A stretch of DNA of 64,000 nucleotides from Cyanidioschyzon merolae (Eukaryota): the NCBI GenBank assembly GCA_000091205.1, contig AP006496.2; one strand, 5' to 3'. Position 1 is the first letter of the stretch; each line of letters begins with the position of its first letter. The notes under the pieces were generated by a model, which searched no databases, was not told the origin of the DNA, and saw only the letters and a list, made by a program, of their open reading frames with translations. Below are positions 1,572 through 60,250 of the stretch, one piece after another. A program made the position numbers and the translations under genes.

Positions 1572-3364
1572 GGCTGGGTTGCGTCAGGCGGCCTCCAGAA
1601 CAGCGTTACCGCACCGGTAACGAGCCCTGCCAAAGTTCGTGCCCTCAACTCGAACCTCTTTGAATGATCGCGTAACCGCAACGTTTACCTTCCGGAATCC
1701 CAGCCGCTGCCAAGCTTCGGGTGTACAAAAACACTGGGCAATAAGGCGCGTAACAGCAGCGGTACCACAAAACTGACCTTCGGAGCACCCGTCAAGTCAA
1801 CGTACCTGAACGAGCACGGGGCGCCAAGGCGTGCTATAGCAGCGCTGGTGAAACCTTGACTTTTTCGGGACTGTTCCGCTGTCAAGCTTTGCACGTGAAC
1901 GAGCACTGGGCAGCGAGTCGTGCGCTAGCCACAAGTCTGGGCACAGGTCCGGAACAAGTCGCTGCTAAGCGCACCTGTACTCGTGGCGCACACATAACTT
2001 CGGGATATTGCGAGGCCGCGGAAGCTTCACGACGCACGCCCGGACAACAAGGCTAGAGCGCAAGCGTCGGACTTGATGAGAACGTTCTTGCGATCGCTAT
2101 GTGTGTCAAGTGTGTGCAACCGAACGGAGGTAGTCGGTAGCTGTGGCGTGCACCGAACACGGAACGGAAGCCTGTTGGCTGCTTCTCGGGGTCGGTGCTG
2201 GAGGCCCAGTGGCGAACTCGTGCCCCCGGCGCTATGCCCAGGAAGATTGCCAGTTATTTTCTTTCGGTATTGAGCGGTTCGGTTCAGGATTTTGAGCAGT
2301 TGCTCAGTCGATGAAGTGCTGATCAAACTGCTTCCCGGAGAGAGAAAGTGACTACGATAGAGCGCGACTGGAAACGCAAGGTGCACTTTGAAGAGCAGTT
2401 CGTGGGGCCTGGTGCCTTGGTTGCTGAAGCGTTTCGGAATACGCGATACATGCTGAACAATGCATGGAGAGTACCTGAACACGAAACATGAATGACATAG
2501 CGTGAAAAGCTTGAAACCTGGCAGCACAGCGTACTGCGATGACAAGCCGATGTCACGTTAGTGTTGCATTCGAGCCCTCGAGCCTACAGGCGGCGACATG
2601 GATGCCTCTCCACCTACTCGAGCAGACCTGGACACTGCTGCTGATTGTTCTATAGCTTTCTTCGCGACCGTCGTGTCTAGAGCTTGAAAGGTAGAGTAGG
2701 ATCTGGAGGCTGCTGCTGGTTGCTCTGGGCTTTATTCTCCATTCTCGTTTCCAGAGTTTTAACGGTAGCGCCGTTCGTGTGGGCTCTGACATTGTCGCTG
2801 AAGGCCATGGCGCTGCTGGGTGTTGTCCGCTTTCGCGCCTGATCGTCGTTTCCAATGTGAGCAACCGTGGCCGTCGCACCGGGTCATTCAGAGTACCTGC
2901 ATCCAAGACCTGCCATGCGACGCACTTTTTGATGCACAGCGCGAGTACTTTCACTGGAATGCGTCATTTGTTTTCTGAGCGCGTTCCGGCTGTAGGCATC
3001 GGGGGCGCGTTCGAGTGTGCATCCTCGGAGAGACCGAGGCTATGTGCTTCCACACAAGAAGCGATCTTCTGTGCTCTGCGCACAAAGTTTCCCTTTACCG
3101 CAACGTCAAACTTCTGCGAAACGAACCCACCGATGGTATGGTCACCAAGACGCCGATTCGTATGATCCGTATCACAAGTGCGCGAAGCCGCCACTTGCAC
3201 AGAGACTTTATCCATACCGCTTGGGATCCTAACCGCCTCCGCGATGCCGTCGACTCGATGCAATCGGGTTTCCAACTGGAATATCCGCAGCAGCACTCTC
3301 AGGAGCGGACGCTGGCGTGCAGCGCCTCCTATAACAAAAACCGCTCCCGCATCGTCCGCGCGAG

Positions 3365-19145: not shown

Positions 19146-19272
19146 GCTAGTGTATGGAAGGTCGTTCTTGTGCAACTATTCGGAAGCACTAAGGCACGGC
19201 GTTGTGAACGGTGAGGCGTCGGCGCGAAATCCTCCAGACTGCCGCAAAGCTCTCTGCCGACCGCAAGGACCT

Positions 19273-19374
19273 GCATCTTCGTAGTCACGCGGTGTCCACG
19301 AAAGGATGACTATGCTGCGACCTTCATCTTCGTAGTCACGCGGTGTCCACGAAAGGATGACTATGCTGCGACCT
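19273..19374. repeat. 51-bp tandem duplication (x2)
   Basis: 'catcttcgtagtcacgcggtgtccacgaaaggatgactatgctgcgacc' occurs twice back to back, just downstream of the hydrolase gene. Confidence 0.8.
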
Positions 19375-19911
19375 GTCACCTGCTCGGGATCCGAGCCGCT
19401 CAGCGCCGAGCGCTGGTCAAGGACGCGAATGCGAGCTTCTTCTCTGTTCGATGCTGCATTCAGGAAAGACTTTAGGGGGCGTTCTACGTGGCATTAGGAA
19501 TGGCGACGCTCGGGATGGCCTCTTTCCGCAGCGGTTTGTTGTTCTACCAATACGAGCCTCTGTGCCTTGCAGCGGTTCCCGTTATCGAATGAAGCTTTTA
19601 CGAAGCAGATCTCAGCGGGAAACGCGGTAACTGTCGCAGTGTAGCGACGTCTCGAAAACTCGCATGTTCGGCGTGTTACGCGGCATCATCACAAAGCGAG
19701 GTTCTGGACACTGGCGATATATCGCCGAGTTTTGACTTGTTTCCAGAACATTTTCTTCGATTGACGAGCTTCAGCAGGCATGGAGTTGGGTCCTGCTTTA
19801 GAAGTCGGTGCTGCTCGCGAAACTTATGCCGCGGTCAGCACAGCGCTTCTGTGACGGGGAGCATGCAAGTCAGCTGGCTAGTCGCATTACTTTGCAGTGG
19901 ATCACGCTGCC

Positions 19912-32574: not shown

Positions 32575-32790
32575 GTGCATGCATCGACGTTCATACAGTG
32601 CACGCATCGCTATGCATACGTTCATACAGTGCACACATCGCTATGCATACGTGTCCGTGCACGCATCGCTATGCATACGTTCATACAGTGCACGCATCGC
32701 TATGCATACGTTCATACAGTGCACGCATCGCTATGCATACGTGTCCGTGCACGCATCGCTATGCATACGTGTCCGTGCACGCATCGCTGT
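32575..32790. repeat. tandem array of a 28/31-bp unit, about 6.5 copies
   Basis: The units 'gtgcacgcatcgctatgcatacgttcataca' (31) and 'gtgcacgcatcgctatgcatacgtgtcc' (28) alternate head to tail with no spacers, about 250 bp upstream of the giant ORF. Confidence 0.8.
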
Positions 32791-33044: not shown

Positions 33045-36000
33045 ATGCAGTCAAGCGCTAGCGCCGCGGTGTGCGGTTCAGCAACCGTTGGGGATCCCAG
33101 TTCGCGGCGAATCAGTTTCATTCTTACACGAAGAGGATCCCTGGGACTTCAGGAACTCTGTACGGCGTGGGTAGGAACGGCACGCTCTATCCACGGAACG
33201 TGGATCTATCCTGACGGGAGCGGATCGAGCGTCACGGAGCGAGCCTCAGCGGACCGACGGAAAACCGGAGCGGTCAGCGAAAGTGCTGTTCACAGCAACG
33301 ACTGGTTTGAAGAAGCCACCCAGGTCACCCATACAATCGTCACTGAGCTTCTACCCGCGCGCTTTGAGATAGCACACGGCGCTCGCTTATTGTGTGCGAT
33401 AGCGACTGGCCACTGGATCCTGCGGGCATCATACCTGCGGGCATCCGCGAGTGCGGGCTGTTGGCTCGACAATGAGATCGACCATGAATGGGCAGCTTCA
33501 CTAGAGTCGCTGAGCGATGCAGAACGCAGCGTCGCGTCTGCCGCACGATGGTGGCGTGAGTCATTACAGAGCGGTCGGTGCAAACGCCTGTTGCAAGATT
33601 TGCGGGTTTATTTGCTCTGCCCAGCTGTCAACGGAGCATCTAATGAATCGCGGGGGAGGACGTGTGCCTCATGGATGGTCGCTGTTGCTTCCAATGCGCG
33701 CGCCGTTGCTGCCATTGTTCGGGCTACCGGTGCCGAGCTCTGCGGCGTCGGGTCAACCTGCACAGCGTCTGATCACTCGATCGATGTCGTTGTCGAAGTG
33801 TACAGCGAGAATGGGCAAAACAGAATTCCACCAAATACCAGTTGCCTTGAGATGCAACAAGGCCGATGGCTTAGCGCTCTGGATATTGTAGTGGGCCTCA
33901 TTGGCTGCGCTGACGAGCAGCTTCGCTTTGCTCAATTGCGAACGACTCGAAACATCCCAGGTTCGGAGAGTCATCATGCTACAAATAGTTGCAGATTCGG
34001 CTCTTCTGGCGGTGAGAATTCCACGTGCGTATCCGCGCTGGCATGGACGGAGACGGCGACTTCCACGAAGAACGAGGCGGTTCCGTCCAGTGACCCGTCG
34101 CCGTCTGCGGGTCGCCTGCGACAAAGTCCGGGTGAGCGGCAGGAATTGTCGGATGCGCCAGCGCCGGCGACCGTGCTTGCGGCTCAACGCGCTGAATGCC
34201 TCCAGCAGCGACCAAGCGGAGCGTTATCCGGCACGCTATCTCCAGATGGGAGCGTGCTCGAGTCAGCTTGCCATGATGATGATGCACTGGGAGAGGTACG
34301 GCACGGGGTCGGTGCACAGAGGCTCCCTTCAAACTCATTACTTTCGCAAGACGAGACGCATGCTGTCACTCTGAAGCATCCCGACACAACTGGCAACACC
34401 GGAATTTTTACATCATATGGCTCGACGCCCGTTGCTTCCAGCAACAACAGCAGCAGCGGCAGCTCTACCCGATCCGCTCGAATCGTGGCGACAAAATTCG
34501 CCGCGGCTCACGCTCTAGGTGAGTCAGAATCCCGAAGTAGCGGCGAGATTGCGCTGTTGCCTGCAGCAGATTCTGGGACTCTCACGGCACTCGAGGACGA
34601 GGCCCCCCTCGAGCAGCTGTCTGGCATTCGCCGGGACGGGATCACTCGGCAAGACCCAGACAACTCATGCAGCGCGTCGTTCACACGAGTCCTGGGTACG
34701 CTCAGCGAAGACAACCGCTCCTGCGCGCCGCTGAGCGACCACTCTCCGAGCGGGTCTATTGAGAACGCTTGCTGGCCACCGTACCGTCAGACTCCAGATG
34801 ATGCAGCTGCAGACGGGTCGGCAAGTCCCTTTGATGAGTTCGATCTCAAAGGCCTTTGGCAAGCGCGCGAACGAGCCACGGCTGCTTTGCCGGCGCACGG
34901 TACGCGGACGCTGTCGCCACGTAAGCGCCAACGTATTCATCAATCGATAGAAACGCACGACGGCACTTCACGCTGCACCACCAGAAGGGTTTTATTCGGC
35001 TCGATAGCGTCCCCGACGACGCCAGAGGGAGTGGCATCTCATTCAGTCGAAGCGCAGACAGCGGGAGCGTCTTCGCACCGGGCGCTTCCAGAGTCTCGAG
35101 CGCGCGTCGAAACTCGAGTGGAATCGCCCGAACGAATTCCTGTGGACAGCAAAGCGTCTCCGCGATCCTCGCTAGACTGTGATGATGTCTCCACAAGTTC
35201 CAGTCCGATGATGGCAAGTGTCTGCGGCAAGCGCATCAAGCATGAGCCATGTTCATGGCCAGAAACGCGCTCCCCTGGGACCACTCCAAAGACGGATACT
35301 CGCGTAACTGGCGCTTCCACCGCAACGAAATTGGAGACGGGTTCGATTTCCTCACCGGATGCCAAGTTCGGAACGTATGGCTCAACAGCGTGGGATGCGG
35401 TGCAACCGCTGCCCCGAACACACCTGGAGAAGAGAGTCTCGCCAGGGCCGCCACGGCGCCAAGCGCCCGCCCTGAGCCCGAAGTTCCACGTTGCAGCCTC
35501 TGATGCTCCAAGTGTCCTGAATCTTTCCCATTTGCTAGACCTGATCCAGGAATTCGAGAGCGCCGTTCAGCGTGATACGAACGAATGGCGACGTGCAGTT
35601 CTGACGCTTGGGTATTCACGAGCGACAAAAGCTCCGCTGTTTCTCCGGGTGGCGGCGCGGAACTTGCGCCGTCTTCGCTTGTTGATGGAGTCGGGTTGTG
35701 TGCGGGTGCCCATGTCGTACGGCAGACGACTGTGGTATGACAGCGGCGCTACAGACGCGCATCGACTGCAGGCAGCATCGTGGCTCTCGTTTGATGATGC
35801 AGCATGGTGCTTGCGTCGCTCGTCGCTGTTGCCGCCCAGGGATATGGGGCAATTCCGGGAGCGTCTCGTGCAGAGTGCCCGCATCCGGGCTCGCGGGCGC
35901 AGCGAGCTTCACCGCCTTGAACCTGTTCAGGCGATTGTCGGACTCGCTCGCGTTCCGCATCGACAACTATTGCGTCTGGCTCCGGATGCGCAACGACGCG

Positions 36001-39000
36001 TGCACACCCTGCGCCGCGTTGTGAGTCGCCAGTGGACTCGTGAGGCCGTTGCCTCCTGGTCAGAAGCGGCCCTCAAAGCGTGGCGAGATCGCCACGAGAA
36101 CGCAAATGCCTACTACTACCGGCATACCGATCCTGGTGAATTTGAGGGCGAGGAGACGCAGTCGCTCCACACGTGGACGCCTGCGGAACGGCGCCTATTT
36201 TTCGCTGAACTAGATCGCTGGCGTGCCAACCAATGGCGCCTAGGCACCTGCTGGGGCATTTTCAGCAAAGCGATTCCGTCACGATGCGGCTACCAGTGTT
36301 CCAATTTTTACCGGGCATGTATCCGCAGCGGCGAGATCCACGATCCAACGTACGGCTTCAATGCCCGAGGAGAGCTGAAGCGACTTTATCCGGAGCGCGA
36401 GGACCCGAACACGCGCGCTCCGCCTGACGCGCTGAATTGTCTCAGCGAGGTCTGGCAGTGGCCCGAGATCCAGTCCATGGAGCGGCAAGTCGATACGTGG
36501 ATTCGGGAACTGCATCCGAGCCTGGCTCTGAATGCAAATTGGTATCGACAGCAGCGCCCTGCAGGCGAACCGCAACGACGCAACGTGCGCGCTGCCTCTG
36601 GTGGACAGCGACAGGCGCGCAGTATTCGCCGCTCACTGCCAGCGACACACATCGACCTGCTTGGGTCGTACCCCGACGCATACATCACCACAACTGATGC
36701 AGCATACGAAGAAGCGGATGTGCGGCATCGACGCGAACGCAGACTCGCGTATCGTTCCGCCTCCGTCGCCTCGACAGGATGCTGTGTGGTCGCACCTGCA
36801 CCTGATCAGCGACGCCTTGAGTCGCGCACTGGCAGCCGCCAAACTTTGCGTTCTCGATCGCAAGCGGAAACGCCCGAACTGGCCTTTGTTGAGGTCGACG
36901 GAGGCGCGCTGATGGAAGTGATGCAAGCGCCCGCCGCAGACCCAGTGGCTGTACCGCAGCGGCGCCGTCTTCGACGTCTCGCCTCACCAGAATCCGACCT
37001 TGTTGACCAGGATGCATTTGGAGTCGATGACGCGCGCTGTCCTACTGTGGCATCTCCAGAGAGCCATAATGCAACAGCGATGCGGTATCAGCAGCGCCCG
37101 AATCGTATCGTTCTTGAGGCAGAGCATGCTGGCACCTCGCTGGGTGCACCATCAGGCCAGAGAAGCGACCGCTGCAATGCAAACCTCGACAAGGTTGCTA
37201 TTGGTGTCGTTCGCTCCATGCGCTCTATGACTGCCCGCAGGCAGCGACTAGAAAGCATTCTGGAACGGATTCGGGCAGGCAAGGCGTCCACGCGGGGACC
37301 AGCACCTGCGCCGGTGCATTCGCTGTTGCAGGCGTCCATGTCAGATGGCAAAGAAGCGTCCTTGTCGGGCAGCACTTCACCAGTGCATGAAGCTCCCGAC
37401 TGGCGCGTACAGCGCCTGCGTCACCTGGTTGGGGCAGCTGATCAGCCTCAGCGCACCGCGCTACTCCCAGCGTTGGAGGCATCTTCTGGAGCGGTCGGCG
37501 GAACATCGCAGAGGTTACCGGCACCGTTGGCGACAGCAGAGGGGCATTCTGGCCGCAAACGCCGCCAACCACAACGACTACTCATTGCTGGACAGACGGC
37601 GGCGACGACGACGACGACAGGAGCAGCAGCAGCAGCAGCAGCAGCGATGAACGCATCTGGTGCAATAGTGCCGCCGATGGAAACGGAGACCCGCTCTGCA
37701 CAGAGGTCAGCAGTCGCACAGCATTGTTACACGGAACAGATTGTACAAGAGACAGGAAACGACTTGCCGGGTGATGAAGGCGACGCTGCGCATCAGCGTA
37801 CAAGTCGATTCTGGGCGCACCAGCATCAGCAGCGTTCACCCGCGAGCATCGTACCTGCGTTCAGAGCCAGTAAGCAACAGACACGCCTCCCGGAATGGCG
37901 TCCGCAGACGCTTTCGGACCATTTGTTGCGACTTTGTCGATTGCTGGACTTGTCGTCGTCGTCGTCGTCGTCGTTATCGAATGCGTGGTGCGATAATGCG
38001 CTCGGGCTTCCACCAGCCGGGGTGCCGCTCGAACGGGCGACACTCGCGCACCCCGAGTGCTTCGACGCTGGCAGATCACACCCTCTACCGCTGATTGTCG
38101 CGGAACGTTCGACTGTGACGGCAGCAGGGACGCGCTCGCAGGCTACAGATTCGTGGAATGCTGCTGACGCTTTTATTGACGGCTTGGACGGTGTGGATGC
38201 GTCGTCGTCGTTGTTGCAGCAGGACAGCGCGCCGCCAGCAACCGCTACAGACGCAGCTGGACGCAGCCGGTATGCTGGCGATAACCCAGACTCTAGCTTC
38301 TACGCAGCCTGGAGTGGCTACTTGAATCAAATGTTGCAGAGAATCCTTCAACGGCGCTGCGGGGATGCTCCTGCAGATCCGCATGCGGAAACGAATGTGA
38401 GCGGTGCGTGGAACGCGCACGACGAGCATGCTTCTGGAACCGGTGCGTCGCAAGCGTGGAGCTGTTCGCTTTCGACACGCGACACGAGCTGCCAGTTCAC
38501 GCTCTGGCCGATGTTGCAAACGCTGTTGGAACGGCTGGCGAACGACGTGGTGCTCTTGTACACGGACGCGGACCCAGTGCTAGGACAGTGGCTGCGACAA
38601 TCGGGTTCTCGCTTCGCCGATGGTCAAGAGGGAGCGGAGCCCGCTCTCCCGCACCTCATACAGCTGGTGATGCGATTGACGGCGCTGCATGCCGACACGC
38701 AAGTCGTTGTGGCGGCGCATTCGCTGGCGACGTGTGTGCACGAGGCGCTCGACGGCACCAGTGCCTCGTCGTCGGGAATATGTTGCGCGCGAGACGCCCT
38801 GTGGATAGCCGTCGCTGTTGGTCTTGAGCGAGCATCGGCAGCGCATGTTCGTCTCCCGACGTTACCGTTGACGATTCCGCAAACGATACCGGTAACCGCT
38901 GCAAACGCGGCGGAAAGCGTGAATGAGCAAGCAAATGCCCAGCAGCAGCTACGTTCGGCACTACGTCTTTTCTGCTGGCACCTGCTTTGTAGCGAAGCGC

Positions 39001-40588
39001 TTCATTGTGCGCCCGTGTTGCTGACAAGTCCGATGTGCTGGCGCCTTGGAGCATCGGCGCTGGCCGAAAGCCTCCAAGGATGGCGGACACTGCGTCAGGA
39101 ATGCACGTCGTCGTCGTCGTCGTCGTCGTCGTCGGGGTCAGCAACGTTGACGATGCCTGCGTTGGCGGCGCTTCTCGCACGCTGGCATGAGCGGGTGCTT
39201 GCGTGCTGCACCCGACACTGGCGCCAGGTTGTGAATGCGGCATGTACGCATCATACTGGCGGCTTCTCGTTGGACACCTGTGCTCCGCTGCTGGAGCAGG
39301 CGCTTCACCTCGGCGCTGAGGCCGCGACCTGGATCGCTTTTCCGCTAGCAACCACCACGAACGCTGAAACAACACTAGGACATGCTGCTCAGCGTCGGCT
39401 TGGTCGTCATGATTGGCGTCTGCAGGCACAGGCGCTGGACGAATGGGCCACGGAGCTGATGCGACCGTTCAGTCCCGAAAGTGACGCGCTTGGCTGCACG
39501 GTGCTGCGTCCTGCTGCTGCTGCTGCTGCTGCTGCTGCCGCCGCCGCCGATTATGATGGTAATCATAACGACGGTCATGATGATCACGGTACACCCGCAT
39601 CGCTCCAAAATATCTGCAATGTTGACTCGTCAACCGCTGTAGTTGCCCTGGCGGGCGTACCCAATGCATGGCATTCGAATACGCTGGGTGCGCCGTTTTC
39701 GCAGCCGTCCACATCAGTCGACGGATTCTATGTCCAGGGCGCTGCGGCGCTGAGCGCACCTGTCACTCTTGGCGCGTTATTTGGCGTGCTACGCTCTGCT
39801 CTGGAGATGTTGGCCGTCTGGAGAACAAGCTGCTGGCAGCGTTTCATCACCAATGCATCGAGTCCGGTGGCAGCATGCAGCGTGGTGGTGGACGACGCGA
39901 ACGCCACCCATGCTGGAGCGCGCTTGCTAGCCAGCACACTCGAACGACGCTGGCTGCAGTTGCTACGCGCGTCGTTGGCACGTCTCTGGCAGGTCAGCGG
40001 GCCCGCAGACGACACAGCAGGCGATGGTGTCTGCCACTGGATCGACCGTAGCTACGGCCCATATGTGTTCTACCTGTACGGGACAGCGCTGCTGGCGCAG
40101 ATGCTCCCTGATCCAGAACGGCAGGCACTCTACAGACAGGTGCGGCATCGCTGCCCTAACTGGATACTGCCGACGCTCCTGCGTCTACACGGGGCGTTTA
40201 TGATATGGTGCTGCACTCGTGTGCGATTCCTCGAGACGTCGCAGCATGCGGCATCATCTGCAAACGAAACGGCGATGGCGTCTCCAGGCAGTGCAACGCC
40301 GCCGCTGCTGCTGCTGCTGCTGCATGGACTTGTCCATGTGCATGCGACGGAATGGGTGACGCTTTCGCAGCAATTGCTGCGCTGGCTGGAGACGGCTGGT
40401 GCGGCACCAGCCGGATTGCTTCCGTCAGCGGGTATGGCGTATGCATCGGAACGCGCGCCCCTGCCGGCAGTCTTGGCGCAACGCGTCCTTGCGCAGCGGC
40501 TCGAGACCAACCGCGTGATGCTTGGACAGATTCCAGCGCTCGATCATGTGACCGCATGGGTCGAGCGTTGCGTGGCAAGCAGCAGCAA

Positions 40589-40620
<32 letters not shown>

Positions 40621-43559
40621 ACAACACCATCCCGAGTGTCGGCAAATGTGCGATTGGCGCGTCCACTTGGACGTGCTGGGAGACGCTGTGGCAAGCGCTG
40701 CCTTGGTACTGGACATGGCTGACGCGAGTCTTGGAAAACGCTGCGCTTGGGAGCAGCGGATCGACTGCGCCCAGCACGCGGTACGCGATCACGCCTGCAC
40801 TAAGCATGGTCACCAGCGGTGTCGTTGTACGCGTCGCCCGTTTCATTCAAGTGGTACTGGCGAGTGCGCTGCTCGAGCTGACGCCCTGTGCAGAGAGCGC
40901 AGGCGCCCAGTCGGATGATGCGCGGGATCCACCGCGTGACCCAGACGCATGGATATGGGCACCAGAAATGACGGCAACGACAACGGTCGACTGGTGGGCA
41001 GCACACACCCAGCGCGCACTGCTGTTACACGCGATTGGCCCGTCGAGTGAGCGCCTCGCCGCGTTTCTCGAGCTGGTGCTTCCGCAAAACCAGTCTGGTG
41101 CTGCTGGTAACTCGACTGGTCTGCTCTGGTTTGTTCCAGCGTCACTGCAGGAGGCACACGCGCACCTCGTTGCCGATATGGTGCGTCTCTTGCATCAGGT
41201 CGAAGGCGCTGCGACGGTCCATCGTTTCTTGACGCGGCTGACGCCTCTCCTTGGAGGACGCTCTGAATACCTGGAAAGCTGGACGGGCATTCGGGCCTGT
41301 CAACGGCGTTGGTCGATCGGATTTCTCACTCGACTGGTGTTTTTGGCGAAACTGCAAGAGCCGGTACGCATACCTGGCAACGTGCACGCTCCCAGAGGCG
41401 TATCAGCGTCCGAAATCCACTGCTGCGGCAGCGACGAATGCAGCGAGACTGCTGACGCTTACGGAGCGCTGGGCGAGTCGTCGGCAAACGCTCTGTGTAG
41501 CGACCAGGAGGCAGCACTGCGACTGGCGGCCGCGTTGCAGCATCTTCTGACACAGACGCTGCTGCATGGACTGGTAGCCTCGCCGCTGCTTTGGGCCTCG
41601 GAACAGGCCGGCGCTCGTGAACGACCGGCCAGTCGCCTATGGTCGAGCATGGAGCCGCTTGTGCGCGCCCTTTGCCAGAGCGGCGATGTTGAAGACGAGG
41701 ATGCAGGAGCAGCAGCAGCAGCAGCAATGCCGTCGTGGCCGCTCTTTCTGGCGCGGTATGCAGCACGCTTCTGCAACGGGCTGGTGCGGCATCCAGCGAC
41801 AAGCGTAGCAACATCGACAACAATAGCGGCTGCAGCACCGCTGACGCATGTGCGGCACCTCTGGCTACCGTTGCTGGCGCGTTTGCGGCAGCTGGTGCCT
41901 ACAGCTTCGGCTGCGACGGTTAACAGCGAAACAAGCTGGCGCCGGCACCAGGTGTCGACGCTGCTGGCCAAGCTGGTAGACGAGCTGGAGGCGCTGCTGA
42001 CAAGTGCGCTCGCCTGGAATCATATGTGGTTGCAGGGGCGGCGTGCGGCAGTCACGGGTGATGAAACACCTGCTCTGTCGCGAGCTGCTCTGCAACTGTT
42101 CCAGTACCTCGTGGAGTTTGCTGGTATTCTTTTGGTGTTGTGTGCGCGCCTTTTGCGGGTACCAGGGCGCGCTCCGTTCTGGTCGCGAGTGATTCGTCTT
42201 GGTCGTCGAGCGCTGGAGGAGTACGCAAACATCGTTGCTGGTCAACGGCGGCAACTGCTACAGACAGAAACGTCCTATGCGCCTGGTAGGTCGCGTTCCC
42301 TGGAACACTTGCGTTGTGTCTGGATCGCTACGGTATTGCGAGGTCTCGCCCAGATGGATCTAGTGCCTAACGATAGCTACTATGCGAGTTTTCGGCGACA
42401 CTTGATTGCGGCAAGCCTCGCCCAGGATGCCCTGGATGCGCTTGTACTGGGTCTATGGCCTGGTTTGTCACCGACTTTGTTGCAGCAGCCGGTCGGCGAG
42501 AGCACGGCTGCCAGGTCCGAACGACCAGCGGTTGGTGCTTGTGTTCGCGAGTCGGATGCCGCTGCTGAGGCGACTGCGTTGCTCGCCCTGCTCGATTGGT
42601 ACTGTCGACCGGAGACGCTGTTCCCTGCAGGCACTGCTGCTCTGCAGCGACTGGAACGTTTTCAACAGGAGTGGCTAAGCGATCTGTGCAGCCGGTGCCT
42701 AGCCCAGGCGCAGTCCGAGCGTTGTGTGAACCTGTTGCAGCGCTGGCTCCAAGGTCGGCTTTTGACGTGTACCCGTCAGTCGTGCTTGTCGCATCTCAGC
42801 GGTGCTGTGTATTACGCAACGATGGCGAGAACGCTTGCCGTTGCCTGGTGGTCCGGTTGCATGCGCCACGTTGCTGTGCGTCTGAATCACGCAGGTTCAC
42901 CATCGATGACGACGACGACGACGACGACGCCAGAACAGCAACAACAACAACAACAACACAGGGCGGCGTTGCGCCCTGCAGACCGAGTGGCGACGGAAGT
43001 GATCAGCGACCAGTGCTCGGGCCGACGATTTGCACAGCGTTTTCGCAACAGCGTCGACTTGGCTGCTGCTCTAATGGAGTGGCTCGCGGCAAGCACCCGA
43101 GTGGATGCCCCCGCTCAAGCGACATGCGAGGAGACGTTGGCATTGCTGCTGGAAGCGCTAGCTGCACATGTCAGTGCCGGTTCATGTCCACATTGCGGTG
43201 ACGATCCAAGTCCGGCATCGATATCGTCTGACGAGCGCGTGCAGTTGCTACGTCGTCGACTGGCGGAACAGCGAGCACGCTCTGCCTGCGCAGCGGTACA
43301 CGCGGTATGGACGGATCATCTGGAGCGACTCGCTCGCAAGGAAGCGATGGACGCCAAGTTGTTTACCCATCCTAGTTGTTGTCGAAACTGGCTGGTGATA
43401 CAAGTCAATGACGTAGTGGAGAGAGCGGCTTGCTGGCGTCGGCGACCCGGTGATATCTGGCGGACCGCTGGACCTAGCGTCTTCGATGGAATGAAAGACG
43501 CTACGACGACGACGAGGACGCCACCGCCATGGTTGTGCTGGTCTGTACCTGAACGCTAA
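33045..43559 (+). CDS. giant low-complexity nuclear-type protein with Myb/SANT-like domain (possible N-terminal BRCT-like fold)
   Basis: Uninterrupted 10.5-kb ORF of 3504 aa. There is a SANT-like 'WTPAERRLFFAELDRWRANQWRLGTCWGIFSKAIPSRCGYQCSNFYRACI' around aa 1015. The N-terminal 'LLCAIATGHWILRASYLRASASAGCWLDNE' is BRCT-like but weak. Many homopolymer tracts (polyQ, polyA, polyS, polyT, polyD) are encoded by CAG, GCT, TCG, ACG and GAC runs. Confidence 0.6.
37604..37644 (+). repeat. (GAC)n(CAG)n trinucleotide tract inside the giant ORF
   Basis: 'gacgacgacgacgacag gagcagcagcagcagcagcagcag' encodes RRRRRQEQQQQQQQ. Similar tracts occur at about 39100-39135 (TCG)n, 39510-39550 (GCT/GCC)n and 42905-42958 (GAC)n(CAA)n. 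Confidence 0.8.
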
Positions 43560-43910: not shown

Positions 43911-44487
43911 TCTTCTCGCATGCAATAGATCGTGTTGCTAGATAGTTGCTCCTTATCAAAGAATGCGGGAAACGGATCCAAGTACTGAATAAAGTGTACT
44001 AGTCAAGGTGGACTTGCCAGTAACAGATCCTCTCTAACCCCAACGTGCTGACCTCTTTCTTCTCGCATGCAATAGATCGTGTTGCTAGATAGTTGCTCCT
44101 TATCAAAGAATGCTGGAAACGGATCCAAGTACTGAATAAAGTGTACTAGTCAAGGTGGACTTGCCAGTAACAGATCCTCTCTAACCCCAACGTGCTGACC
44201 TCTTTCTTCTCGCATGCAATAGATCGTGTTGCTAGATAGTTGCTCCTTATCAAAGAATGCTGGAAACGGATCCAAGTACTGAATAAAGTGTACTAGTCAA
44301 GGTGGACTTGCCAGTAACAGATCCTCTCTAACCCCAACGTGCTGACCTCTTTCTTCTCGCATGCAATAGATCGTGTTGCTAGATAGTTGCTCCTTATCAA
44401 AGAATGCTGGAAACGGATCCAAGTACTGAATAAAGTGTACTAGTCAAGGTGGACTTGCCAGTAACAGATCCTCTCTAACCCCAACGT
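43911..44487. repeat. 147-bp tandem repeat, about 3.9 copies (intergenic satellite-like array)
   Basis: The motif 'tcttctcgcatgcaatagatcgtgttgctagatagttgctccttatcaaagaatgc...' restarts at 43911, 44058, 44205 and 44352, a period of exactly 147. The copies are near-identical. The array lies between the giant ORF and the AVL9-like gene. Confidence 0.85.
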
Positions 44488-48789: not shown

Positions 48790-51700
48790 GCCAAACGCCT
48801 TTCGAAAGTCGAACGACGTCGGGCGTGTACAGTAGCGGCGACCGGCGGCCTAGACGTAACGCTTCCAGCTGGTGTGCAGACGCCTCCCAGCGTTTCTCGG
48901 CGGGCCACGTACTATTTCTTCTAATTTCGTCTCATATACTTCTACTTTTCGAGATTGTCCAACAAAATTCCCTCTTGTCTACTCTGGAGGTCTGTTCTCC
49001 AGCACTGCCCATCTCCGGATATTGATAGCGGCGTTAAAGTCACGATTCACAAAATCCATACGTCTCCTGCAATCTCTGGTTGTACTTTCTGATGCAAGTA
49101 GTCCACGAACTTTCGCTCTCCTTTCAATTTGCTCTTCCGTCAGCGGTTCGTGCTTTGCTATTTCCGAACGGCTCGTTGGCACTTTTCCATCTCCACTGTC
49201 TGAAGTGTACAACCCATTTCATGGTGTGTATAGGACGTTCGGAACTCATGTACAGGTATCGTGAAGAAACGCCTTGCGCACTCTTTGTATGTTCTTGCCG
49301 TTGGAACTGGCGCAGTCCCTTTTTTCGACGCCGAGCACCCTGCTCTGTACGCTACTACGAGCCTCTGACTTTCATCCTCCTTCAGGGCGCTCAACTGATT
49401 GAAAAAATTCGCGAACGCCCGCTGCTTCCCACAATACAAGTTCATTCACAAACGAGCCCACCGGGGCTTGGTATACTCCTCCCACAGCGCCTCCCAATGA
49501 GCAGCGCGAACTTTCATGAATTTCCGAAAAGCTTCAAAGTCCGCTCCTCGGCTAGTCACCTCGCTCAAAGCTTCCATGTGATCCTTCACTCCTGAATTCC
49601 ATTTCTCGATTTTCTTCCTTGCATTCATTATACCGGATTCTCGATAGTATCTTGGTCTCGAGAACCTCAAAAGACGCATGTCTCTCTAACGAAAGTTACC
49701 ACCAGTACTATCTTCCGCACGCTTCGGTGCTGCGATGGTGATGATATTCGTATTCCCGGGGTCCGCGCCAACGACAAAGTCGTTATCTTGTACTTTCTGT
49801 GCCGCAGGATCCGCCTTCTTGTTTTCTTCATGCTTCGTCGCGCCAACGACAAAGTCGTTATCTTCCACTTTCTGGGTCGCAGGATCCTCCTCTTTCTTTT
49901 CTTCATGCTCCGCCGCGTCAACGACAATGTGGTTATCCTCCACCTCCTGCGTCGCAGGATCCTCCTCTTTCTTTTCTTCATGCTCCGCCGCGTCAACGAC
50001 AAAGTCGTTATCCTCCGTCTCCTGCGTAGCAGGGTGCGCCTCCTTCTCATCTTCATGCCTCGCCGCATCAACGACATGGTCGTTATCTTCCACCTCCTGC
50101 ATGAGAGGATCCTCCTCTTTGTTTTCTTCATCCTTCGTCATGGGCGCAGTCGAGGGCGGAATTGGACGATCTTTCTTCAACCGCCGATAGTGTATACACA
50201 TGGCTACTCCATCGGTTTCGATCAACCCAGTAAATACCTTTTGTTTGGTCTCTTTGAGACGTTTGAAATTGAAGATATTCTTCCAGTACGTCTCCCGGTT
50301 ATCACCGGAGAACTCCTTGTTGCTAACATTGAACTCCGGACAGATCTCCTTCATGATGCCATGAAGGATCCTGGAGTCGATACTCACAAAATGTGACTTG
50401 ATGTTGCACAACGGAACCACGTTGAACCGCTTACCCATTAGGAAAGCCTTCTGTCTCTCCCACTCTTCATTTTTCCTCACTCAGCTTCATCTCCGCCTTG
50501 CGTTCGAGTTCTCGATTCAGGAATACGAAATAGAGCAGGATGAGTTGATAGCATCTTTTTTCATCTTTTTTGAACTCTGATATTTTTTCTGTTGGATTCG
50601 CCAGCCCCATGACTGCACGGTGCTCTTGTATAACCGCACGGATTACAGAAGCCTCATTCGTGCTCTCGTTTGGCGCCTTCTTGTCGACAAATTCGACCTC
50701 ATCTTCATACTTTCGATCGTTCGTGATGCCATTGATAATCGCCCATATTCCTTTGCGAGACAGGCCCGGGTAGAGTGGAAACACGGTGCGTATTATGAAA
50801 CGTTCGAGGTTCATTGTCAAATGGTTCTTCAGGTTCGTGATGTGCTTCATCGCCCCGTAGCCGTAAATACCCCGGTCACCCTTGTATCGAGTACCGTTGA
50901 AGCTGTAAAAGGGATGTTTTTCGTGGGGGCCATGCACTAGCACATTTTCCCTCCGCGTTTTCTCTCCACCAAGCATCAGGTGTCGAATAAAGGTGATGTC
51001 GAAAAACTCGTCTGGAATCTCGACCGTTTCGATGTGCGTCACGTCTTTGTACATCTCCCTCGCCAAATGCATCAGCCCTGACGACGCCTTGACAATACTC
51101 TTGGAGTACGAGTCGACGCGTTTTTCGATAGCGTCTCGCAACTTTTCCCTGTACGGATCCTTGATATGGCCAAGAAGAAAGGCTCTCATCACCTTCTCGT
51201 CGTACAGTCGTCTTTCTTGCCGCCTTCGACGTAGGACCTCTCCCCTTCGGTTCTTTTTCTTCTCCTTTTCTTCTGGGCTCGGCACTGTTTTTCGTTTTTT
51301 CTGGCAGCCAGCGATACTGGGCCTCCAGGATCGTCGACTTGCTTTTTCATAGCTTTCCTTTTTCAGTTTTTTTAAATGAACCCGCTGTGAATGCTTCGGT
51401 TATATACTGCGAAAAAACACTTGGCCAGACTTGTTTGAGGGTTGAAACACCAATGAACTGAAAACTATATTTTTGTTCGACTCCGACGCAAATACAACTT
51501 TTACAGCTGAACAACACGCTCCTGGTCAGCATCGCGGTTCCTTTCAACGGCGGCATGTGCATCGCGTCAGTTGACTGCCTGATCTCCGAGATGCGTTCAT
51601 TAAGCGCAATGCGTCCATCGCACGAGACGCCACTCCAGTCGATGAAGGACACGTGTCCGACACCCCGCATTGGCACATGCGTGTTCGCATCGCATTGCAG

Positions 51701-54240: not shown

Positions 54241-54425
54241 TTCCGTCTCTCAGGGTCCTGCTTGTGTGGAGTACACGTTGCCCAGCAAAGCACCAGCGTA
54301 GAGCAGTCGCCACAACGATCTCCGCGCCTGTGCGCTGCGGCTGGCGCACTGCCGCATCTCATCGAGGCGAGATCGCGGCGCCTGGAAGTGGACATCAGCG
54401 GCGGCAGCGGCGGCAGCGGCAGCAG

Positions 54426-54626
54426 GTGTCACGAGCACGGGGTGCGGACATATACCAACGAACATACGGTGTGTCGATGGGTGCTGCTTTGGGTGTCACG
54501 CGCACGGGGTTCCGAAGTATATCAGTGAACATACGATGTGTCGATGGGCGCTGCTTTGGGTGTCACGCGCACGGGGTGCGGACGTATATCAGTGAACATA
54601 CGGTGTGTCGATGGGCGCTGCATTGG
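54426..54626. repeat. 67-bp tandem repeat x3 upstream of the thioredoxin gene
   Basis: The unit 'gtgtcacgcgcacggggtgcggac.tata.cagtgaacatacggtgtgtcgatgggcgctgctttgg' is repeated three times contiguously, about 190-430 bp 5' of the thioredoxin ORF. Confidence 0.8.
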
Positions 54627-57439: not shown

Positions 57440-60250
57440 CGGGCGCCTGCATCTCCACTTAGGTGAGGGCGGTACTGAGATGGGCAGGAGCGTCGGCACC
57501 AGCGACATAGCATAGAGCAGGAGTGCATTCTACGTGAATTTCCAATCTAGGACACCTGATTTCAGCTGCAGTGCGATGCGAACACGCATGTGCCAATGCG
57601 GCTTCGGACACGTGTGCTTCATCGATCGGAGCAGCGTCTCGTGCAGTGCACGCATCGCGCTCGGTGAGCGCACCCCGGAGATCAGGCAGTCCATTGACGC
57701 GACGCGTATGTCGCCAATGAGGGGAAACGTGATCTTGATCAGTAACGTGTAGCCGCAATGTAAAATTGTAATTTCATTGAGTTCGTATCCAGGTATAGTT
57801 TTTATTTCAATTGTGCTTCACCCTTAAAACAAGCGTAGTCAAGTGTTTTCTCGCGGTATATAACAGAAGCGTTCAAAGAACGTTCTTTTTCAAAAAAAAA
57901 TCTAAAAAAAGGAAAGTTATGAAAAAGCAAGTCGACGATCCTGGAGGCCCAGTGTCGCTGGCTGCCAGAAAAAACGAAAAACAGTGCCGTGCCCAGAAGA
58001 AAAGGAGAAGAAAAAGAACCGAAGGGGAGAGGTCCTACGTCGAAGGCGGCAAGAAAGACGACTGTACGACGAGAAGGTGATGAGAGCCTTTCTTCTTGGC
58101 CATATCAGGGATCCGTACAGGGAAAAGTTGCGAGACGCTATCGAAAAACGCGTCGACTCGTACCCCAAGAGTATTGTCAAGGCGTCGTCAGGGCTCATGC
58201 ATTTGGCGAGGGAGATGTATCGCGACGTGACGCACATCGAAACGGTCGAGCTTCCGGACGAGTTTTTCGACATCACCTTTATTCGACACCTGATGCTTGG
58301 CACAGGGGAAGCGCGGAGGGAAAATGTGCTAGTGCATGGCCCCCACGAAAAACATCCCTTTTACAGCTTCCAGGGTAATCGATACAGCGATGACGGAAAT
58401 ATTTACACATGCGGGGTAATGAAGTACATCACGAACCCGAAGAACCATTTTACAGTGAACCTCGAACGTTTCATGATACGCGCCGTGTTTCCACTCTACC
58501 CGGGCCTGTCTCGCAAAGAAATACGGGCGATTATCAATGGCATCACGAAGGATCGTAAGCATAAAGATGAGGTCGAATTCGTCGACAAGAAGCCGTCACG
58601 CAGGAGCACGAATGAGGATTCTGTAATCCGTGCGGTTGTACAAGAGCACCGTGCGGTACTGGGGCTGGCGAGTCCAACGGAAAAGATATCAGATTTAAAA
58701 AAAGATAAGGAAAGATACTATCGCCTCGTCCCGCGATATTTTGTGTTTCTGGACCGAGAGCTCGAACGCAAGGCAGAGGTGAAGCTGAATGGGAAAAATG
58801 ACGAGTGGGAGAGACGGAGGGCTTTCCTAATGGGAAGCGCTTCAACCTCGTTCCAATGTGCAACATCAAGTCACATTTTGTGAGTATCGACTCCAGGATC
58901 CTTCATGGCATCATCAGGGAGATCTGTCCGGAGTTCGATATAAGGGAGACAGAGTTCACCGGTGAAAACCGGGAGACATACTGGAAGAATATCTTCAATT
59001 TCAAACGTCTCAAAGTGACCAAACAAAAGGTATTTACTGGGTTGATCGAAACCGATGGAGTAGCCATGTGTATACACTATCAGCGTTTGAAGAAAGATCG
59101 TCCTGGTCCGCCCTCGGCGAACCACGAAGATGAGACGGAGGCGGTTCCTGCCACGTAGAAAGTGCAGGAAAACGACTTTGTCGTTGGTGCGGCGAAGCAT
59201 AAAGATGAGGAGGAGGAGGATCCTGCGACGCATGAGGTGGAGGATAACGACTTTGTGGTAGGCGTGAACCCCGGGAACACGAATATCATAACCATCGCTG
59301 TATCCAAGCGTGCAGAAGATGGTACTGACGGCAACTTGCGTCAGAAGACATGCGACTTTTGAGGTGCTCGAGAGCAAAATGCTATCGAGAATCCGGTATC
59401 ATGAATGCAAGGAAGAAAATTGAGACATGGAATGCAGTAATGAAGGATCACCCGGAAGCTTTGAGCGAGGTGACGAGCCGCGGCGGGGACTTTAACGCTT
59501 TTCTGAAAATCATGAAACTTCGCGTTGCTCGTTGGGATGCGCTGTGGGAGGAGTATACAAAGCCTCGGTGGGCTCGTCAACGTATGAAACTATACTGTGG
59601 TAAGCGGCGCGCGTTCGCGAATTTTTTCAATCAGTTGAGCGCCCTCAAAGAGGATGAAAGTCAGAGGCTCGTAGTAGCATACGGAGCAGGGCGCTGGAAG
59701 ATCCAAAAAAGGACTACGCCAGCTCCATCGACAAGAACGTATAAGGAGTGTGCACGGCGTTTTGCTACAATACCTGTTGATGAGTTCCGAACATCGTATA
59801 CACACCATGAACGGTGATGTACGCTCCAGAGAGTCGAGATGAAAAAGCGCCAGAGGAGCCCTGAGGATATAAAAAAGTACGGAGCGCAAACGGAAGAGCA
59901 AATGGAAAGGAAAGCGAAAGTTCGTGGACTGATCGCATTGGCGAGTACAATCAATGGCAAGAAACGTATCGAATTCGTGAACCGAGACTTTAACGCCGCC
60001 ATCAATAGAAGGAGATGTGCGGCGATGGAGACGAGACCTGCGGAGTTGACAAGAGAGAATTTTATGGGGCAACCTCTCAAGGTGGAATTATACGATACGA
60101 AGCTGAAGTCAGTAGTAGGTGGCCGGTCGAGAAAGACGGGGAGGCGTCTGCATTTCAGTTGGAGACGTCTCGTCTAGGACGAGTTCGCCGCCACTGCTGT
60201 ACACCGCTGGCGGCAGCGTTGTTCTTTTGGAAAGCGTTTGTTGTTCGTGG
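57440..60250 (+). mobile_element. Fanzor/TnpB-like (OMEGA-family) nuclease element, copy 2, inverted relative to copy 1
   Basis: It has the same architecture and flanking non-coding homology as copy 1 at about 80-90% nucleotide identity. The RuvC-I motif reads '[15 protein letters not shown]' (Asp to Asn). The RuvC-III motif 'FVNRDFNAAINRRR' is present. There is an in-frame TGA at 59816-59818. Confidence 0.65.
57919..60180 (+). pseudogene. Fanzor/TnpB-like RuvC nuclease coding region, copy 2 (frameshifts plus in-frame stop)
   Basis: The ORF pieces are 57984-58883, 58805-59158, 59162-59362, 59350-59817 and 59839-60177. There is a 1-bp deletion in 'ggaaag' after AFLMG relative to copy 1, and a TGA within '...THHER*CTLQRVEM...' where copy 1 reads HHEMGCTLQTVEM. 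Confidence 0.6.

Follow-up and report, generated by a model that had tools for sequence, protein, structure and literature searches.

MMS22L–TONSL binds nascent chromatin, acts at stressed replication forks and promotes RAD51-dependent fork repair (PMC9409234), and yeast Mms22 is an adaptor of the Rtt101–Mms1 ubiquitin ligase that works via the BRCT scaffold Rtt107 (PMC3128540, PMC11697250). Plants are reported to have TONSOKU and are stated to lack an MMS22L ortholog (PMC9409234). Here we describe a gene on chromosome 14 of the red alga Cyanidioschyzon merolae 10D, lying in a stretch of 64,000 nucleotides (contig AP006496.2; the whole analysed stretch is called the window) and consisting of a single 10.5-kb open reading frame (ORF) for a protein of 3,504 amino acids (aa). 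Our best reading of this protein is a giant modular nuclear scaffold with a role in chromatin or genome maintenance. An earlier note, made from the letters of this DNA alone, had proposed a chromatin or transcription scaffold; the chromatin part of that proposal is the one our results favour, whereas a Myb transcription factor is disfavoured.

Results

The ORF runs uninterrupted from ATG to stop, exactly at 33045-43559 on the plus strand (3,504 codons plus stop), and its length is far beyond chance, as the earlier note had held: at the stop-trinucleotide frequency of the window (0.0255), 3,504 open codons have a probability of P ~5e-40, and the longest other open frame in all six frames of the window has 981 codons. 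The first ATG is at 33045, with the open frame beginning 21 nt upstream (33024). Codon-usage log-odds, trained on eight Pfam-supported genes of the window, were highest in the ORF frame in 11 of 11 windows of 900 nt. The giant ORF is a genuine single gene.

An exhaustive HMMER search with aa 1-1200 recovered an ortholog, a 3,455-aa 'hypothetical protein' (P0032, E = 2e-218) that aligns with the C. merolae protein from end to end at 37% identity. In its own assembly (GCA_041825655.1; loci L005/L006), it is likewise one uninterrupted ORF, with Avl9 next on the same strand, as in the window. Identity to P0032 is 43-72% over aa 1-240, 13-35% over aa 301-840, 67-92% over aa 961-1140 and 13-33% over aa 1201-1800, and rises again to 50-65% in blocks inside aa 2340-3240 (aa 2340-2400, 2640-2760, 2820-2880 and 2940-3240). 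This profile defines the domain architecture (Table 1). The two stretches of low identity are fast-evolving linkers that are predicted to be disordered, and the helical segment at aa 841-984 is conserved in the C. merolae/P0032 pair only. Within the species, a metagenome scan yielded four strain loci at 98-99% identity, two of which (L001 and L002) span the whole gene; pN/pS (the non-synonymous to synonymous ratio) among strains was ~0.45 in the SANT block, 0.51 in the C-terminal half, 0.76 in linker 1 and 1.28 in linker 2, all from small counts.

A possible BRCT-like N terminus, suspected in the earlier note, was borne out by searches against the PDB. As a single sequence (phmmer), aa 110-182 matched the SLF1 BRCT pair (5.4e-6) and TopBP1 BRCT7/8 (3e-4), and a four-sequence profile made of the window protein, P0032 and two Galdieria sequences (alignment A4) reached 5e-10 for TopBP1 BRCT7/8 and 1.3e-9 for SLF1. 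The aligned stretch comprises the second half of a BRCT repeat (repeat a) and the inter-repeat linker helix (ARWWRESLQ versus AMRWRKKIQ), a feature only of tandem BRCT pairs. The SLF1 match extends into the start of repeat b, and the hydrophobic pattern makes a second repeat plausible. In the profile alignment, Arg114, which does not vary in alignment A4, corresponds to the Lys of TopBP1 'NEK', a position that we take to be the phosphate-contacting site of canonical tandem BRCTs. The S/T-G motif position lies outside every alignment and is not conserved in Galdieria, and the Pfam BRCT models found no match in the window protein. Judging by these profile matches, the N terminus carries a BRCT module of the TopBP1-BRCT7/8 or SLF1 type.

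The SANT/Myb-like segment of the earlier note (WTPAERRLFF...) also held up, as the core of a longer domain. Searched against 1.84 billion cluster representatives, aa ~985-1165 gave 645 matches, 267 of them at E <= 1e-10. An N-terminal helix-turn (WS..A...AW....N.NAYYYR) precedes the core and a C-terminal extension (L..VWQWPE....ER.VD.WI.ELHP) follows it. An AlphaFold2 (AF2) model built from a 36-sequence alignment had a predicted local distance difference test score (pLDDT) of 93-98 over most of the core, which forms a three-helix bundle with a conserved aromatic core, matching solved SANT/Myb domains; a Foldseek comparison of this model with the PDB gave no significant match. Pfam Myb_DNA-binding (PF00249) stayed below its gathering cut-off of 24.4 bits, with 13.6 bits for the whole protein and 20.5 for a 150-aa piece, and is itself matched at E <= 1e-3 by 26 of 61 family members (best 2.9e-8). 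The domain is basic (net charge about +5) and 83-92% identical to that of P0032; in its core (aa 1040-1100), the strain comparison found three synonymous and no non-synonymous differences. BRCT and SANT together supply domain support beyond low complexity, on which the earlier note had made its proposal depend.

Two forms of this family can be told apart, both with conserved extensions flanking the three-helix core. The short form has RLxLDDAL in front and usually a U-box behind, and the long form is marked by an NGWxIG insert together with a C-terminal L..VW...EV...E..V..W....H element. The protein of the window belongs to the long form, with all elements aligned and E values of 1e-27 to 1e-63 to other long-form members. 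Domain partners among the 61 family members were U-box (18), MT-A70 (7), MMS22L_N (2), C5 DNA methylase (2), Mus7 (1) and CUE (1). Judged from these alignments, the extended SANT domain is a large, pan-eukaryotic and apparently unnamed and uncharacterised family, and we found no description, name or assigned function for it in the literature. It counts more than 600 representative clusters and is fused, according to lineage, to MMS22L, BRCT, U-box, MT-A70 or C5-methylase modules, and this spread of partners suggests a common chromatin- or DNA-targeting role for DNA-modifying and ubiquitin enzymes, which would act on newly replicated chromatin.

A conserved, all-helical C-terminal region, overlooked in the earlier note, makes up about half of the protein. 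These ~1,700 residues are conserved in the C. merolae lineage and its sister lineage, with the helices taken from a low-confidence model. A possible identity for the region comes from proteins in which the extended SANT stands N-terminal to an MMS22L-type region: Gefionella okellyi P0037, Balamuthia P0066, Anaeramoeba P0185 and the metagenomic protein P0042 (ENA). In the Gefionella protein (2,101 aa), the long-form domain near the N terminus is followed by Pfam Mus7/MMS22 (3e-15), MMS22L_N (4e-8) and MMS22L_C; P0042 matches MMS22L_N above threshold (1.4e-7); and the tails of the Gefionella, Balamuthia and Anaeramoeba proteins are mutually homologous (1e-19, 1e-13). These proteins carry the long form of the domain, as the window protein does. 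The SANT–MMS22L architecture may be ancestral for MMS22L. In the literature, we found no description of this protist architecture, nor of one that joins BRCT, extended SANT and a (probable) MMS22L region.

Closer to C. merolae, the best SANT match after P0032 was a Galdieria partita protein (P0034, GJQ10894.1, 2,216 aa; 46-47% identity), which shares the N-terminal BRCT. The BRCT is also shared by the N terminus of a G. yellowstonensis protein, found as a fragment (P0112) in a cluster that also holds a full-length member (P0190, KAK4526358.1, 2,577 aa), and both are taken here as Galdieria orthologs. Scored against a hidden Markov model (HMM) of four MMS22L-like tails, the P0034 tail reached 14.7 bits, compared with a maximum of 3.8 bits over 300 local-composition shuffles and no score for the reversed sequence. 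The match sits on the FW..N..V ... NW.LV..L core, which is also the site of the Pfam MMS22L_N match in Gefionella, and a profile comparison (hhalign) of the Galdieria tail with the MMS22L-like profile gave P = 0.0012 over 741 collinear columns.

For the C. merolae tail itself, the match to the MMS22L-like profile is marginal. Two MMS22L-like HMMs gave -0.3 and 1.6 bits, scores reached by 1 of 1000 and 0 of 1000 local shuffles, respectively; with the P0032 tail, the corresponding counts were 19 and 15 of 1000. The recurrent weak matches are collinear, and one motif (aa 3088-3123; Table 1) returned at the same place in every comparison, no single match being significant (P 0.016-0.1). Pairwise BLAST comparisons of the C. 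merolae tail with Gefionella and Galdieria gave no significant match, and phmmer found no match to the tail in the PDB. Two-sequence HMMs were powerless even on pairs believed homologous, and word-indexed homolog searches with aa 801-1300, aa 2230-3030 and the Gefionella MMS22L region gave at most one match each and missed both P0032 and P0037, probably owing to low-complexity words. A likeness by eye of aa ~1860-2010 to the MMS22L_N core in four motifs (FW / F.W /.W.L) had no program support and was not counted.

The description of the protein as dominated by homopolymer tracts did not survive closer counting. Runs of at least four identical residues add up to 81 aa (2.3% of the whole length); sequence entropy is ordinary (3.6-4.1 bits per 100 aa); and P0032 has no homopolymer run of at least five residues, with gaps or ordinary sequence at the C. 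merolae tract positions. Among the listed kinds, polyA (four runs), polyS (three), polyT (three) and polyQ (one) are present, polyD is absent from the protein (the longest D stretch is DDD), and one polyL run had gone unlisted. The pure trinucleotide runs that were reported are nearly pure arrays, ten period-3 arrays of 6.7-13.3 copies. The giant ORF, which makes up 16% of the window, holds 9 of the window's 13 period-3 arrays with a score of at least 40.

That these runs might be unstable in length, as the earlier note also suggested, is confirmed by the strain comparison. The environmental strains keep the ORF intact (3,503 aa in L001 and 3,495 aa in L002), and all indels among the window, L001, L002 and L003 are multiples of three, each inside a trinucleotide tract: polyA at aa 1527, polyS at 1643, polyS at 2022-2030, polyA at 2157, an S/N tract at 2516-2525, polyA at 2889, polyT at 3289 and polyQ at 3298. 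Since the tracts are absent from P0032, they are recent, lineage-specific slippage insertions; they would have arisen by replication slippage in tolerant loops and linkers and would play no part in function. The gene offers a natural example of trinucleotide-tract length polymorphism within a coding gene, with eight coding tracts varying in frame across environmental strains and all ten tracts missing from the sister lineage.

Table 1 Features of the giant gene, in window coordinates (TRF, Tandem Repeats Finder)
Feature	Position	Strand	Evidence or variation
Complete single-exon coding sequence, 3,504 aa + stop	33045..43559	+	ORF scan; codon usage; intact in strains L001/L002 and ortholog P0032
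BRCT region (aa ~20-290): repeat a with 40-aa insert, linker helix with 'ARWWRESLQ', putative repeat b	33102..33914	+	phmmer and profile versus PDB
Linker 1 (aa 301-840), predicted disordered	33945..35564	+	64-71% disorder-promoting residues; 13-35% identity to P0032 with gaps
Helical segment before SANT (aa 841-984)	35565..35996	+	35-67% identity to P0032; AF2 helices, pLDDT 55-84
Extended SANT/Myb domain, long form (aa ~985-1165)	35997..36539	+	645 homologs; alignment A3; AF2; P0032 identity
Three-helix SANT core (aa ~1040-1100)	36162-36344	+	Within extended domain
Linker 2 (aa 1171-1800), predicted disordered, bears polyT/polyA and polyS tracts	36555..38444	+	13-33% identity to P0032
(ACG)n polyT5 then (GCA)n polyA8	37605..37646	+	polyA one codon shorter in L001, L002, L003
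(TCG)7 polyS	37953..37973	+	One codon shorter in L001, L002
C-terminal all-alpha region (aa 1801-3504), candidate divergent MMS22L/Mus7-like solenoid	38445..43556	+	P0032 conservation; AF2; HMM shuffles
(TCG)9 polyS	39108..39134	+	TRF copies: 10.7 L001 (interrupted), 6.7 L002
(GCT)8(GCC)4 polyA12	39513..39548	+	TRF copies 12.0/10.0/11.0 in window/L001/L002
(CTG)6 polyL	40305..40322	+	Copy number equal in all strains
(AGC)6 polyS in S/N-rich tract	40590..40607	+	7-codon deletion in L001 and L002
(GCA)6 polyA	41709..41726	+	One codon longer in L001
Recurrent motif (aa 3088-3123) 'HLRCVWIATVLRGLAQMDLVPNDSYY'	42306..42413	+	Aligns to MMS22L_C part of Gefionella P0037 (~aa 1752-1775) and to Galdieria aa ~1868-1885
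(ACG)7 polyT then (CAA)n polyQ7	42909..42956	+	Six extra T/M codons in L001; polyQ +1 in L001, +2 in L002

The giant gene sits between an AATF-like gene and Avl9. Exact 10D matches among the neighbouring ORFs are beta-tubulin (BAM81345), the chloroplast-division dynamin CmDnm2 (BAM81344) and CMN269C (BAM81351), and the remaining flanking ORFs are eukaryotic housekeeping genes (scramblase, mitofilin, PEX11-like, AATF and Avl9), all intronless and on both strands. No gene record was found for the neighbouring Avl9 and PEX11-like genes. The C. merolae genome is said, in the 2004 account by Matsuzaki and colleagues, to have almost no introns. The giant gene is indeed intronless, being one ORF, but this is unremarkable, because nearly all C. 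merolae genes are intronless. The genome became public in 2004. A collection of 15 billion proteins lists the neighbouring C. merolae proteins under GenBank accessions and lacks an exact match to the 3,504-aa translation; the reason is either a different deposited gene model or a missing entry. No mention of locus tags CMN270C-CMN274C or of the domain motifs was found in the literature.

Three ORFs of 200-257 aa lie within the span of the giant ORF, in different frames or on the opposite strand, at 38656-39429 (minus), 40205-40918 (plus) and 42596-43201 (plus). The codon-usage scores of their frames are negative, and these are therefore chance ORFs of GC-rich coding DNA.

Longer tandem repeats occur around the gene. 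A 31-bp minisatellite (also readable with 59- or 90-bp periods) lies at 32587-32788, ~260 bp upstream of the giant ORF's ATG, with 6.8 copies in the window, ~3 in L001 (9633-9744) and 5.8 in L002 (9571-9744). Between the stop codon of the giant ORF and Avl9, a 147-bp unit occurs in 3.9 copies with 99% identity (43911-44487) and recurs at the end of strain contig L002 (20840-21107); 147 bp is also the length of a nucleosome core. Further along, related arrays of a 75-bp (25-codon) unit lie ~9 kb apart in opposite orientation (49763-50137 and 59115-59256). The reverse complement of one consensus fits the other by eye, which points to an inverted duplication or to a pair of paralogous genes with repeats. 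Additional tandem repeats are a 9-bp unit (3.3 copies) followed by a 67-bp unit (3.0 copies) at 54396-54626, and a 51-bp unit (2.1 copies) at 19268-19375.

Discussion

Within the best reading of a modular scaffold for chromatin or genome maintenance, a more specific identity can be proposed, to which we give an even chance: the tail would be a highly diverged solenoid of MMS22L/Mus7 type and the protein a replication-stress scaffold, that is, a divergent, BRCT-fused MMS22L. The protein would act at stalled or broken replication forks. Its BRCT module would dock on a partner that carries phosphate, namely a phosphorylated histone tail or a phosphoprotein of the checkpoint or replication-stress response, while the basic SANT-like domain would anchor the protein on DNA or nucleosomes. 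The helical tail, most likely a divergent equivalent of the MMS22L/Mms22/Mus7 solenoid, would provide a platform that brings in effectors. In yeast, Mms22 is recruited by Rtt107, a separate BRCT scaffold; here the fused BRCT would take its place, so that recruiter and platform stand in one chain.

We also put forward, tentatively and as something we think rather unlikely, a wider evolutionary account. On this account, the red-algal branch of Archaeplastida would have its missing MMS22L in this protein, which would preserve an ancestral combination of extended SANT and MMS22L that was lost in the opisthokont models; and the Cyanidiophyceae would have added a BRCT pair of TopBP1/SLF1 type, merging an Rtt107-like recruiter with an Mms22-like platform. 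If this were true, the extended SANT would be a module, so far undescribed, that directs proteins to nascent or replicating chromatin, common to MMS22L, MT-A70 (N6-methyladenine, 6mA), C5 DNA methyltransferases and U-box ligases.

Several results weigh against assigning the tail to MMS22L. None of the Pfam MMS22L/Mus7 models (PF09462, PF14910 and PF14911) matched the window protein or pieces of it at E <= 10, and none was found in P0032 (E <= 0.01), in the Galdieria proteins or in candidate MMS22L_N regions excised from the red-algal proteins. The AF2 model of aa 2280-3300, from two sequences, is all-helical with a pLDDT of 34 and is unusable for fold comparison. With thin profiles, hhalign gave P = 0.1-0.14 for the C. 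merolae and P0032 tail against the MMS22L-like profile and P = 0.07-0.11 against Galdieria; homology of the C. merolae and Galdieria tails is therefore undemonstrated and rests on the shared architecture. Shuffling destroys helical periodicity, so a score that beats shuffles could mean generic helical-repeat character. Nor is the long form of the SANT domain diagnostic of MMS22L: in the early-diverging fungi Calcarisporiella and Bifiguratus it is fused to MT-A70, and Balamuthia carries a second copy that is not attached to MMS22L (P0052). At the other end of the protein, a profile of aa 180-300 against the PDB found no BRCT at E <= 10, leaving the second repeat undetected.

Some of these observations also speak for the strongest alternative, which we consider a serious contender though less than evenly probable. 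The protein would be a BRCT–SANT chromatin scaffold specific to the Cyanidiophyceae, with a tail unrelated to MMS22L and with the SANT domain as a mobile chromatin-targeting module. The promiscuity of the extended SANT fits this account, since two of the 61 members are joined to MMS22L as against 18 to U-box, 7 to MT-A70, 2 to C5 DNA methylase and 1 to CUE, as do the long-form copies joined to MT-A70 in fungi and the failure of Pfam and hhalign to give the C. merolae tail a significant match of any kind. It leaves aside, however, that a Galdieria protein of the same architecture matches the MMS22L_N core far above shuffles, that the C. merolae tail scores at or above the top of 1000 shuffles, and that its weak matches are collinear and recur at one motif.

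A sequence-specific transcription factor of Myb type, with long activation or low-complexity regions, has in our judgement a small probability. The protein has one repeat only, and its third helix (GYQCSNFYRACIRSG) is closer to the SANT 'QC.NFY' type than to a Myb recognition helix. The partners found in the family are enzymes and repair scaffolds rather than transcription-factor architectures, and BRCT modules and a 1,700-aa helical tail would be atypical. A telomere protein like Rap1/TERF2IP, the classic case of a BRCT combined with a Myb domain, is a slight prospect. The BRCT matches the tandem modules of TopBP1-7/8 and SLF1, not Rap1; the window protein has no Rap1_C (RCT) domain or other Pfam match; the SANT falls in a family of its own, with more than 600 members and with MMS22L, U-box and MT-A70 as partners; and the protein is 5-10 times the length of any Rap1. 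Although the GC content of 55-62% across the ORF (48-63% over the window) lowers stop-codon density, an artefact, be it a frame left open by chance in GC-rich DNA or a reading that fuses several genes, is next to impossible given the odds against such a length, codon usage that is best in this frame in every window, a frame kept across 63% amino-acid divergence with conserved synteny, strain indels that are all multiples of three, and conserved domains at both ends and in the middle.

C. merolae is genetically tractable through gene targeting. Read as a divergent MMS22L, the protein would be a candidate replication-stress scaffold of MMS22L type in a red alga, and one that can be tested; no MMS22L has been recognised in that lineage or in plants (PMC9409234).

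Relation to known systems

Compared with the SANT/Myb domains of CoREST, N-CoR, ZZZ3, Ada2, c-Myb and RADIALIS, the C. merolae domain differs in falling below the Pfam gathering score and in carrying extensions ('NPNAYYYR' at the N-terminal side and 'W...EV...E..V..W....H' helices at the C-terminal side), which mark it as a separate family. With Rap1/TERF2IP, the protein shares the domain order of BRCT then Myb, whereas it differs in BRCT subtype, Myb family and size, and lacks an RCT domain.

The BRCT region is closest to TopBP1 BRCT7/8 (3al2, 7cmz) and SLF1 BRCT1/2 (8ir2). With these, the second half of repeat a aligns together with the linker helix (A.RWR...Q) at E ~1e-9, and a basic residue (Arg114) stands at the TopBP1 'NEK' Lys. 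Unlike them, the C. merolae protein has an insertion of ~40 aa in repeat a and a repeat b undetectable by sequence, and the remaining protein is unrelated. TopBP1 and SLF1 act in the replication-stress and DNA-damage response, where a role for the C. merolae protein is proposed.

The MMS22L family (human MMS22L, Mms22 of S. cerevisiae and Mus7 of S. pombe) consists of large all-helical scaffolds, and the C. merolae tail, with its predicted helices, resembles them in this respect. The C. merolae protein has no direct Pfam or significant profile match to the family, is 2-3 times longer and bears BRCT and SANT modules, which to our knowledge have not been described for human or yeast MMS22L/Mms22. 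By contrast, four protist-grade proteins put an MMS22L-type region downstream of an extended SANT of the C. merolae type, and a Galdieria protein with the C. merolae architecture matches the MMS22L_N core motifs.

The nearest relatives are P0032 and the Galdieria proteins P0034 and P0190, both of the latter annotated 'Myb-like domain-containing protein' and all of them uncharacterised. None has the homopolymer tracts of the C. merolae protein, and the Galdieria tails are not demonstrably alignable to its tail. The SANT domains of Galdieria and C. merolae, by contrast, are 46-47% identical, their BRCT regions are weakly alike (26% for P0034 in alignment A4), and the C. merolae protein shares with P0034, P0190 and P0032 one and the same order of parts, from BRCT through the long-form SANT to a long helical tail.

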